A stretch of DNA of 64,000 nucleotides from Isurus oxyrinchus (Eukaryota): positions 1 through 64,000 of the forward strand of contig JANJGN010000301.1 of assembly GCA_026770705.1 (NCBI GenBank), written 5' to 3'. Positions 14,781-59,350 of the stretch are shown here, piece after piece; the stretch's first letter is position 1, and the number at the start of each line of letters is the position of its first letter. The notes beneath the pieces were generated by a model. The model searched no databases, had not been told where the DNA came from, and saw only the letters and a list, made by a program, of their open reading frames with translations. The position numbers and the translations under genes were made by a program.

Positions 14781-15258
14781 ATGGGAATCCTCCTTATTTT
14801 CACCCTGTGTGTCTGTTTACCTCGTGAGTACCGATCAAACAAACCGACATTATGTGGATTTAATATAAAGCTGCCCGAGTCCATGCCGATTACAGACACT
14901 GCCTGGGGTTTAACCCCGTTCTGTGGTTCGGCTCTGATGGTCCATTAAACTATCTCTGTTTAATTTCCAGACTCTTTCAGTCAGTCAGTGGTACAGACCC
15001 CGGCAGCGGTGACCAGGAAGGAGTGTCAGTCTCTCACCATCAACTGTGTTTTCTATGGTGGTTTTTTCGCTCATCCTTTGACCGGCGGGGATTTCTTCAG
15101 ACAAACCCAGACCGGGACAGAGTGGGAGCGGATCTCCAGCGGGGGGAGGTTTATTGTGTCGGTGAATAAAGCAGAAAAGACATTTTCGCTGGAAATTCGG
15201 GATGTGAGAGTTGAAGACACCGCCACCTATTACTGTAAAGCTCAATACCAGTACGACA
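14781..15258 (+). CDS. NAR-TCR V segment 1 (IgNAR-like V): leader exon 14781-14823 + V exon 14971-15258
   Basis: Leader MGILLIFTLCVCLP with phase-1 GTGAGT donor; AG acceptor at 14969-14970. Open V 'HSFSQSVVQTPAAVTRKECQSLTINCVFYGGFFAHPLTGGDFFRQTQTGTEWERISSGGRFIVSVNKAEKTFSLEIRDVRVEDTATYYCKAQYQY'. VNAR hallmarks: SLTINC, ISxGGR, no CDR2, KxFSL.I.D..VED. Confidence 0.93.
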
Positions 15259-15296
15259 CACAGCGATGGGCCTCGGCATCCCGCGATACAAAAACT
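15259..15296 (+). other. V-RSS, 22-bp spacer
   Basis: CACAGCG (15259-15265), 22 bp, ACAAAAACT (15288-15296). Confidence 0.9.
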
Positions 15297-15618: not shown

Positions 15619-15692
15619 GGATCTTATACTGAATTGTAGCACAGTGCATGGGGTAAGGGGAAGTCACAGTGGCAGAGACCTGAGCAAATACC
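15619..15692 (+). other. NAR-TCR D segment 1 (core 15647-15664) with 12/12 RSS
   Basis: GGATCTTAT-12-CACAGTG | CATGGGGTAAGGGGAAGT | CACAGTG-12-GCAAATACC. The paralogue at 35042-35114 has the same layout. Confidence 0.85.
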
Positions 15693-16007: not shown

Positions 16008-16104
16008 AGTTGTTGTACCTGGGAGACTGAGAGCGGTGTCACTGTGGTGGTTTATAAATATGATCATGCGGATGGATCCGGGACAGTGGTGGCTGTCACA
16101 GCCG
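16008..16104 (+). other. NAR-TCR J segment 1 (coding 16047-16104) with 23-RSS
   Basis: AGTTGTTGT-23-CACTGTG (16040-16046); encodes VVYKYDHADGSGTVVAVTA; phase-1 donor GTAAGT at 16105. Confidence 0.9.
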
Positions 16105-19008: not shown

Positions 19009-19314
19009 ATTCCAGTTCCGTAATTTCCCGGGATCCGCCTCTACAAACCGCTCCTGCCGGTGACACCGTTACTTTAAACTGTGAATACTCAGGTATCTGT
19101 CAGTACACAGTACACTGGTACCGTCAGTCCCCCGGACAGGCTCCGGAATATCTGCTTCAGAGGCACACTTCAGGAGAGGAGAATAAAGAAAACGCTGCAG
19201 GGGGAAGAATTTCTGCTTCTATCGATTCTGCCGAGAAAATCAGCCAGTTAGATATCCCCAAACTCCAACTGAGCGACTCCGCTGTGTATTACTGTGCACT
19301 GAGTCGGCGCACAG
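19009..19314 (+). CDS. TRDV: Leaderless supporting TCR-delta V segment 1 (not in the ORF track: no start codon)
   Basis: Acceptor TCCTCCAG (AG 19007-19008), phase 1. Open exon 'DSSSVISRDPPLQTAPAGDTVTLNCEYSGICQYTVHWYRQSPGQAPEYLLQRHTSGEENKENAAGGRISASIDSAEKISQLDIPKLQLSDSAVYYCALSRRT'. No leader exon seen upstream; extra Cys in CDR1. Confidence 0.92.
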
Positions 19315-19466
19315 CACAGTGATACAGAGCACGGATAGAGCTATACAAAAACCTGAACATGGTGGGAATACAGACACAGTGATACAGAGCACGGAGAGAG
19401 CCGTACAAAAACTTGAACATAATGGGATTACAGACACACCGTGATACAAGGCACGGAAAGAGTCCA
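19315..19466 (+). other. Tandem RSS array: two complete 23-RSS and a third partial one
   Basis: CACAGTG(19315)-23-ACAAAAACC(19345-19353); CACAGTG(19375)-23-ACAAAAACT(19405-19413); CACCGTG(19437) with a similar spacer but no nonamer. Period 60-62 bp. Confidence 0.92.
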
Positions 19467-33010: not shown

Positions 33011-33120
33011 CACTAATTATTATTCTCAAAGCAGCACTTTATCACGTTAACAAAGCTGACAGCAATTGGCCGGACGTGCAGAAAAAAATGTGGGTTTTAT
33101 ACATTGCATCTCAAATCATC

Positions 33121-33347
33121 GGCCATGTTTGTGAGACGTACTGTCGATCGTGTTTGTGTGACGCACAGCTGGCCATGTTTGTATGAAGTACTATTGGCCA
33201 TGTTTGCGTTACGTACTGTCGGCAATGTTGTTGTGACAAAGCTGTCGGCCAGGTTTGTGTGATGTAATGTCGATCATCTTTGTGTGACGAAACTGTCGAT
33301 CATGTTTGTGTGACGAAACTGTCGGCCCGGTTTGTGCGACGTGCTGC
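33121..33347 (+). repeat. 25-26-bp minisatellite, 9 copies
   Basis: Unit 'ggccatgtttgtgtgacgtactgtc'; only about 2 units at the paralogous site 13229-13277. Confidence 0.9.
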
Positions 33348-38403: not shown

Positions 38404-38712
38404 ATTCCAGTTCCATGATATCCCAGAATCCGCCTGTACAAACGTATCCTGCCGGTGACACCATTACTTTAAGATGTGAATATTCGGTCAGGTTCTGTCA
38501 GTACACAGTACACTGGTACCGTCAGTCTCCCGGCCAGGCTCCGGATTATCTGCTTCAGAGACACACTCCAGGAGAAGAAAATAAAGAAAACGCTGTGGGA
38601 GGGAGAATTTCTGCTTCGATTGATCCTGCTGAGAAAATCAGCCGGTTAACTGTCTCCAGACTACAACTGAGCGACTCCGTTGTGTATTACTGTGCACTGA
38701 GTCAACGCACAG
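38404..38712 (+). CDS. TRDV: Leaderless supporting TCR-delta V segment 2
   Basis: Acceptor AG 38402-38403, phase 1. Open 'DSSSMISQNPPVQTYPAGDTITLRCEYSVRFCQYTVHWYRQSPGQAPDYLL...LQLSDSVVYYCALSQRT'. CDR1 Cys; no leader seen. Confidence 0.92.
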
Positions 38713-38751
38713 CACAGTGATACAGAGCACGGAGACAGCTGTACAAAAACC
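38713..38751 (+). other. Consensus 23-RSS
   Basis: CACAGTG-23-ACAAAAACC. Confidence 0.95.
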
Positions 38752-56081: not shown

Positions 56082-56623
56082 ATGTTGGGTTTTACCTTTT
56101 ATTCATTTCTCACAGCTGCAGCTCTCTTACCCGGTAAGTCCGCACGTTACACAGTCTTCCTCTTGCAGGTATCATTCTTTCAATTCAATTTTATTTCTAT
56201 TCAGAATCCCTCACTCAACATGACAAACTGGGCTAAAGTAATATAACCTTTAAGCTCTTTATTTTTAATTTCTGCAGGTGTTAGTGGTGCAGACTCAGTC
56301 TCACAGGAACCAGAACCAGCAATGCAATTTGAAGGAGACTCGGTGACCATTTATTACAGCTATTCCACCACTGCTGGTACACCTTACTTACAGCTGTACC
56401 GTCATGACCGGGGTAAAGTCCCCACATTCTTGATGTACATCCCAAAATACGGAAATATTTTCAGAGCAGAGGGCGTGGGGGCTCGATTTTCTGCATCTCT
56501 CGACACTTTGAAAAGTGAGGGGAATTTCACCATCCGTGACCTGCAGCTGTCTGACAGCGCGGTGTATTACTGAGGGCTGGGAGACACAGTGACAGGAACC
56601 AGAGGGAGACTCGTACAAAAACA
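56082..56623 (+). pseudogene. TCR alpha/delta V pseudogene: leader 56082-56133 + V exon 56278-56584 + 23-RSS
   Basis: Leader MLGFTFYSFLTAAALLP + GTAAGT. In-frame V 'GVSGADSVSQEPEPAMQFEGDSVTIYYSYSTTAGTPYLQLYRH...LQLSDSAVYY*'. RSS CACAGTG (56585-56591)-23-ACAAAAACA. Confidence 0.92.
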
Positions 56624-58984: not shown

Positions 58985-59350
58985 GCGAGTTGGTCCTCAC
59001 TGGATGTAAAGACACCGACCTGGTCTATGGTAAGAGTCTTTATGGGGGGAATTGCTCAGCTTTAGGGACCAAGGGTGGTGTTCTGGCTGTCAGAGAATAT
59101 AAACACCCAGAGCTTGAATACGGTCAGGGTCCCTATAGGGGGAATGGTTCAGCTTTAGATACGGAGGGCGATGCTCTGGCTGTCAGTGAATGTAAACACC
59201 CTGAGCTGGACCACGGTCAGTGTGTTTATAGGGGAAATGGCTCAGCTTTAGAGACCAAGGGTGGCGTTCTGCCTTCCAGTGAAGTTAAACACCCAGAGCT
59301 GGGCGATATTTAGCGTCCTTATAGGGGGGTAGGTTCAGCTTTAGACACTG
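58985..59350 (+). repeat. 93-bp minisatellite, ~4 copies
   Basis: CAGCTTT anchors at 59057, 59150, 59243 and 59336 (period 93). Confidence 0.92.

Follow-up and report, generated by a model that had tools for sequence, protein, structure and literature searches.

Organisation of the cassette and its stacked signals

We analysed a window of 64,000 nucleotides from Isurus oxyrinchus (contig JANJGN010000301.1, positions 1 to 64,000, forward strand). It holds two cassettes of identical layout, the second of which (34.3-38.8 kb) is 85% identical to the first. The features of the first cassette, together with the supporting V gene of the second, which served as an internal comparison, are as follows (RSS, recombination signal).

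14781..14823, + strand: NAR-TCR V leader exon of cassette 1, with ATG and GT donor; matches the leader of shark homologs P0003 and P0020
14971..15258, + strand: NAR-TCR V exon of cassette 1; open frame, an additional a-b loop Cys, and a WYRK position lacking W
15259..15296, + strand: NAR V RSS, single, with 22-bp spacer; no repeat after it
15619..15692, + strand: NAR D (15647-15664), flanked on both sides by a 12-RSS
16008..16104, + strand: NAR J and its 23-RSS (minus strand, heptamer 16040-16046)
19009..19314, + strand: supporting V-delta1 exon, leaderless and open, starting at a splice acceptor (19009), with a Cys in CDR1
19315..19374, + strand: array unit 1, a perfect 23-RSS (19315-19353; heptamer, 23-bp spacer and nonamer all match) and a 21-bp linker
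19375..19436, + strand: array unit 2, a 23-RSS (19375-19413; perfect heptamer, one nonamer mismatch) and a 23-bp linker
19437..19465, + strand: terminal stub, a one-mismatch heptamer and spacer-like stretch lacking a nonamer (6 mismatches at its place)
38404..38751, + strand: supporting V-delta2 exon (to 38712) and a single perfect 23-RSS (38713-38751)

By all features testable here, the cassette is a predicted member of NAR-TCR, the doubly rearranging TCR-delta of cartilaginous fish reportedly described by Criscitiello in 2006. The NAR V has a leader, the a-b loop cysteine and no W at the WYRK position; its own D (12/12) and J (23) lie between it and the supporting V, which is leaderless and has a cysteine in a CDR1 reading GICQY. 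The cassette is linked to D/J/C-delta, with a C-delta-like exon at 29.90 Mb of contig C26, beside which one D (12/23) and at least five J-type 12-RSSs were found in 118 kb scanned. The V-delta1 exon is 85-91% identical to the second V domain in models from Cetorhinus and Carcharodon, and in homolog models the NAR J runs straight on into the supporting V. In the part of the NAR-TCR description available (PMC1845163), the a-b loop cysteine and missing WYRK tryptophan of the NAR V and the leaderless second V with its CDR1 cysteine are given as marks of this receptor.

Further elements were seen around the cassettes. A single D-delta (12/23) and at least five J segments precede C-delta at C26:29.911-29.929 Mb and again at 590-608 kb of the divergent contig C242, where the J sequences are markedly unlike those on C26 and a run of inverted NAR-TCR cassettes is present. 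A conventional V pseudogene with a near-perfect 23-RSS lies at 56279-56623 of the window; its first cysteine is replaced by Y and its second by TGA. The window has further tandem repeats at 33119-33346 (25 bp x 9) and 58997-59345 (93 bp x 3.4), and at least 14 perfect single 23-RSSs are clustered at C31:1.18-1.60 Mb, probably another antigen-receptor locus.

A preliminary description of the stretch at 19315-19466 had placed two 23-RSSs and a nonamer-less third unit behind V-delta1, and every coordinate that it gave is correct. It had also described a 60-62 bp unit present three times; the unit offsets are 60 and 62 bp, the third unit being a stub, and Tandem Repeats Finder agrees (19311-19462, period 60, 2.5 copies, 86% matches, score 209). 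The first 30 RSS nucleotides of V-delta1 find their best repeat match within 130 bp at 3 mismatches. For V-delta2, whose RSS begins at 38713 and had been described as single, the best match within the same distance has 14 mismatches, that is, no repeat. The V-delta1 frame runs YYCALSRRTAQ into a TGA at 19320-19322, within heptamer 1, so that a join at RSS2 would retain RSS1 together with an in-frame stop, as had been proposed. The retained RSS1 should still be joinable, since the downstream J-type 12-RSSs fit the 12/23 rule.

The stacked RSS array is real and family-wide. Misassembly, the main doubt raised beforehand, would require an assembly artefact to have produced units unlike one another, the same array on a second contig and separate arrays, each of its own units, in 42/53 paralogs; its probability is practically negligible. 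On C26, a 461-bp stretch matches at 100% within a cassette (39.23 Mb) that is 98.7% identical over 5.3 kb, with an identical array. Head-to-tail joints going back 58-62 bases were present in short-read contigs from 4/4 runs, labelled as three organisms, although none of the contigs examined spans the whole stretch and the best-matching sample may be the assembly's own. Genome-wide, the 23-RSS pattern had 162 matches read forwards vs 2 read backwards as a chance control, and the tandem 23-RSS pattern 74 vs 0.

Stacked signals across the supporting V-delta family

A V-end pattern found 88 genomic places, 48 of them on C26. The census comprised 53 C26 genes (these 48, with 4 and 1 from other searches) and 11 genes on C242; at least two more supporting V-delta genes on C26 lie outside the count. 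Two to ten units of about 62 bp follow 42 of the 53 C26 genes. Unit numbers were 1 in 11 genes, 2 in 12, 3 in six, 4 in eight, 5 in ten and 6 in two, with 7, 8, 9 and 10 in one gene each. At least two nonamer-bearing units were present in 40/53 genes and at least two canonical-looking RSSs in 39/53, and a nonamer-less stub, mostly of the same type as that of V-delta1, terminates 16/53. Among the 37 intact C26 genes, four have a single unit.

The repeat is confined to this family. A tandem hit was defined as a perfect 23-RSS followed by another heptamer within 32 bp, and all 74 such hits in the genome, including three outside the census, carry a supporting V-delta unit. Repeated signals were found in 0/57 of the NAR V and NAR J signals of the same cassettes and in 0/3 of the conventional V signals in the window. 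The textbook layout is one V with one RSS, and the stack behind V-delta1 had been called unusual. It is not special to V-delta1, the single-RSS genes being the minority (11/53). Stacked RSSs behind shark V genes were not found in the literature searched, which was covered mostly at title and abstract level and without the main NAR-TCR papers (Criscitiello 2006, Deiss 2019, Ott 2021); provisionally, they appear to be undescribed.

The in-frame stop in RSS1 is present in all 42 multi-unit genes on C26. On C242, two of five arrays are open to RSS2. In these two genes (L097 and L098), a G instead of A follows heptamer 1, hence there is no stop, and a join at RSS2, whose heptamer has two mismatches, would add about 20 CDR3 residues in frame. 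Four other C242 genes (L091-L094) were considered as germline-joined V-J and rejected as such: they are unjoined, with a V end 5 bp shorter and no stop on read-through. The shortening comes from a collapsed CACAG, which is otherwise repeated where V end and heptamer meet, and these genes have a single RSS.

Three damaged genes were also recorded. At L135:1250-1500 (C26:25.27 Mb), a hybrid pseudogene joins the 5' half of a V of the conventional, leader-bearing type to the linker of an array unit. L149 and L150 are supporting V-delta pseudogenes with a deletion from about codon 28 into the first spacer, and they keep a 4-5 unit array running into a long GATA microsatellite.

Turnover, selection and age of the units

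Array length is unstable. Of the 65 paralog pairs with ≥95% identity, 12 differed in unit number: V-delta1 has 3 and its 98% paralog 4, and other pairs have 5 vs 8, 6 vs 9 and 3 vs 10. Internal blocks occur within arrays, such as a repeated 123-bp dimer (L014/L049). Unit divergence was 0.154 within arrays vs 0.166 between arrays, and since the two are about equal, homogenisation is not strongly local. Unit number was not linked to V intactness (3.5 vs 3.25, P 0.50) or to distance to D-delta (rho -0.04, P 0.75), and compensation of distance by array length was rejected on the latter result. Deletionally oriented genes had more units (mean 4.3, n=22) than the others (2.8, n=30; P 0.028), but the 53 genes form only 24 clusters and nine 2-unit genes of one cluster drive much of this difference.

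Selection was measured on trees of distinct units from 64 genes (53 on C26 and 11 on C242) with stubs removed; earlier runs (ratio 1.05) had included the nonamer-less stubs, which inflated nonamer change, and were redone. In unit 1 (n=43), the rate of change of heptamer and nonamer together was 0.46 times that of the spacer (P 0.004). In the extra units (n=92), they changed at 0.98 of the spacer rate (P 0.50), on unit trees of 62 bp that are rough and poorly resolved and with a redundancy among units that could mask selection. The extra-unit ratio was 0.88 behind intact V genes (P 0.31) and 1.00 behind broken ones (P 0.55); with gaps counted, the ratios were 0.57 for unit 1 and 1.15 for the extra units. 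Strict RSSs numbered 50 among 86 extra units vs 50.3 expected under random scatter, and 29 among 38 first units vs 24.6 expected (P 0.07). Of the distinct extra units, 57/86 (11/22, 25/34 and 21/30) look canonical. Extra units thus can have heptamer, 23-bp spacer and nonamer, as RSS2 of V-delta1 does, with no conservation of the signal above that of the spacer. These observations indicate that selection acts on the first unit only.

Some measures point the other way. Pairwise divergence in the extra units was 0.108 for the heptamer, 0.185 for the spacer and 0.201 for the nonamer, vs 0.221 for the intron (most stubs included), and distance to consensus was 0.067 for the heptamer vs 0.093 for the spacer. 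Spacer length was steadier than linker length (23 bp in 91/107 vs 38/73), with 5 indel types in the spacer vs 19 in the linker class, the latter including nonamer slips and the CA run. Few parts of the unit change more slowly than the linker, whose pairwise divergence is 0.14-0.15 vs 0.18 for spacer and 0.22 for intron. The outermost unit, by contrast, showed no selection, with values of 0.062 for the heptamer, 0.075 for the nonamer and 0.09 for the spacer.

One cassette carries what looks like an inherited signal joint:

C26:29964813-29964826 (L117:4813-4826, L131); C242:380208-380231 (L132): signal joint

At C26:29964819/20, the 5' 12-RSS of a NAR D is fused bluntly, heptamer to heptamer, with an array 23-RSS. 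The cassette keeps a NAR leader and V, 330 bp upstream of the joint, and has lost D, J, intron and supporting V; aligned with the window cassettes, it passes directly from the D signal to that of V-delta. The copy on C242 is 87% identical and shares the junction, which is most simply explained by one inherited event. V(D)J signal joints are recognised by exact fusion of RSSs (PMC2193153), and sharks are known to have RAG activity in germ cells (PMC2193156), as far as the available parts of these reports go. RAG thus appears, from the junction, to have cut one such array; the nearest intact flanks are 78% identical, and the cut unit is unit 1 or a later one. The two copies have 3 and 6 full units, that is, the array kept changing without a V to serve. 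The joint also indicates that the NAR D and supporting V signals of one cassette can mis-pair, destroying the cassette.

The preliminary description had proposed a comparison with other sharks, and at the protein level the repeat was found in models of Hemiscyllium, Rhincodon and Pristiophorus. Tails of gene models were compared with translated arrays, a pass requiring a score above all 100 shuffles and above single-RSS flanks. Six of 18 tails passed for the repeat (P0022, P0027, P0032, P0046, P0047 and P0050), namely three from Hemiscyllium, one from Rhincodon, one from Pristiophorus and one from a further contig. Ten of the 18 did not pass, and P0015 and P0031 were dropped, having passed through a V-region match caused by tail parsing and not through the repeat. 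A Pristis (sawfish) model, P0054, shows two units by eye and scored 34 vs a shuffle maximum of 35; it was not counted. P0050 was not accepted as truly reading through five units and served solely as evidence of the repeat: three of its W residues fall where the family has TGA, so the gene call probably translated TGA as W. Its tail, used as query, matched only P0050 itself. Pristiophorus is a squalomorph and the others are galeomorphs, a split about 200 million years old or more. The repeat is therefore probably old in sharks, as judged from these translated models.

Interpretation of the extra signals

The reading that we favour, with some reserve, is that the V-delta1 stretch is one member of a family-wide RSS minisatellite with near-neutral turnover, in which selection holds only the first signal; the extra signals probably form a repeat that is tolerated and does not serve as a control device. 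The unit of roughly 62 bp consists of the supporting V-delta 23-RSS and its 3' flank. A founding duplication may have arisen in an early supporting V-delta gene through short CA-rich homology between the V end/heptamer and the linker end, and arrays would since have grown and shrunk by slippage, unequal crossing-over and conversion. Fresh copies of the protected unit 1 and exchange among some 55 paralogs could hold the outer units near consensus, and this copying and exchange may explain why the arrays have persisted from early shark evolution onwards.

RAG can probably cut the outer units. Because every C26 array has the in-frame RSS1 stop, the resulting join would be dead, leaving RSS1 no more than a few hundred bases from the joined D/J. 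The cost should be small, since RSS1 could rejoin a further J-delta or the cell could use another V. In mouse Igk, strong RSSs adjoining the recombination centre dominate secondary joins, according to the part of that report available (PMC13190342). The preliminary description had suggested a built-in second chance. Its premise holds in that RSS1 is retained and a later J join would be allowed, but no gain over a single RSS is expected, because a first join at an outer unit would never be productive and the later RSS1 join gets a single in-frame chance, as usual; rejoining would buffer the cost without adding benefit. Against a near-neutral minisatellite stands the combination of apparent great age and restriction to a single family; a purely neutral repeat could account for it only by way of turnover. 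Against neutrality stand also the lower divergence of extra heptamers than of spacers, the steadier spacer length and the longer deletional arrays.

Some of these observations lend support to a role in V usage, which we consider unlikely. The stack would then raise capture by the D/J-delta recombination centre, as a RAG-loading antenna, or lower it, as a decoy, and the proportion of delta chains that are NAR-TCR would depend on unit number, with redundancy relaxing selection per unit. The canonical appearance of most extra units, the age and family limitation of the arrays, the slightly lower heptamer divergence, the longer arrays in deletional orientation and the mouse Igk precedent are in keeping with this. 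The decoy or booster put forward in the preliminary description is nevertheless not borne out: the extra-unit signals are neither conserved nor purged, their canonical share equals the random expectation, intact and broken V genes give the same picture, unit number is not linked to distance from D-delta, and arrays were still changing in the V-less cassette. A broader proposal, that the stacks have been kept for some 200 million years as a length-variable, RAG-capturing device that docks the cassette at the D/J-delta centre through an initial dead join, with the retained RSS1 then rejoining a further J, and whose array length tunes both the frequency and the form of an antibody-like TCR, is likewise one that we regard as doubtful.

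It is quite improbable that the dead outer join is itself a useful step. Such a join would bring the cassette to the delta enhancer and D/J and open NAR V-D-J recombination, and a rejoin of RSS1 to a further J-delta would remove the D and give a short, D-less supporting CDR3. The RSS1 stop found throughout the C26 arrays and the one D with at least five J 12-RSSs downstream would suit this sequence of events, as would the two separate rearrangements required by NAR-TCR (PMC1845163, PMC5931798) and the platypus TCR-mu, in which the supporting V is without its former D and the CDR3 of that V is short (PMC3457774), all as given in the portions of these papers available. The step cannot be obligatory, however, because 11/53 genes, four of them intact, have one unit; in addition, the outermost unit shows no selection, and the 12/23 rule lets V join J directly without an extra RSS.

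To a role outside RAG cutting we give very little credence. The linker would be a candidate site for a transcription or chromatin factor, or the array would drive the unequal crossovers that multiply cassettes. The linker's slow change and its recognisability in other sharks speak for this, as do the two pseudogenes and one hybrid V broken into the array, whereas it is also the linker that has the most indels, being down to 11 bp in several arrays.

A V family with up to ten near-consensus signals on most members is unexpected, whether adaptive or not. It offers a natural series of 1 to 10 units, in both orientations and 0.03-10 Mb from D-delta, suited to finding out which strong RSS of a stack is chosen by RAG and whether the shark locus is scanned linearly, and it bears on the order of the two NAR-TCR rearrangements. 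If neutral, the arrays are a measure of the signal clutter that V(D)J recombination tolerates. They will also confuse RSS-based annotation and short-read assembly of shark TCR loci.

Comparison with known systems

VH replacement works by a cryptic heptamer. Secondary rearrangement and receptor editing, as outlined in the available part of the mouse Igk work (PMC13190342), share with the present arrays a usable RSS upstream of the first join that could rejoin a downstream J. Editing differs in that a first join may be productive before a new V takes its place; in the present arrays, with the RSS1 stop in 42/42 on C26, an outer-unit first join would always be dead and the same V would serve again, and the site does not qualify as an editing site.

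NAR-TCR, to the extent covered by the available portions of four descriptions (PMC1845163, PMC5931798, PMC3457774, PMC12227049), shares the leader and NAR V, D, J and leaderless supporting V-delta, as well as the supporting V-delta CDR1 cysteine, the 23-RSS and the place upstream of a common D/J/C-delta. Those portions do not mention stacked RSSs, whereas 2-10 units follow most supporting V-delta genes here.

The blunt heptamer-to-heptamer fusion and its diverged copy fit an inherited product of germline RAG activity in sharks. In the available parts of the reports, the documented shark cases (PMC2193156, PMC2193153) are coding or hybrid joints, whereas the present one is a signal joint retained on the chromosome and links, unlike those cases, a NAR D 12-RSS with the supporting V-delta array of one cassette.

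The arrays agree best with minisatellites or VNTRs. The tandem units fall within 10-100 bp and copy number changes quickly, as judged from paralogs of one assembly; shared features are head-to-tail units of 50-63 bp, copy number varying between close paralogs, higher-order blocks and a partial terminal unit. They differ from the usual minisatellite in that each full unit comprises a whole recombination signal and that selection acts on the first copy.
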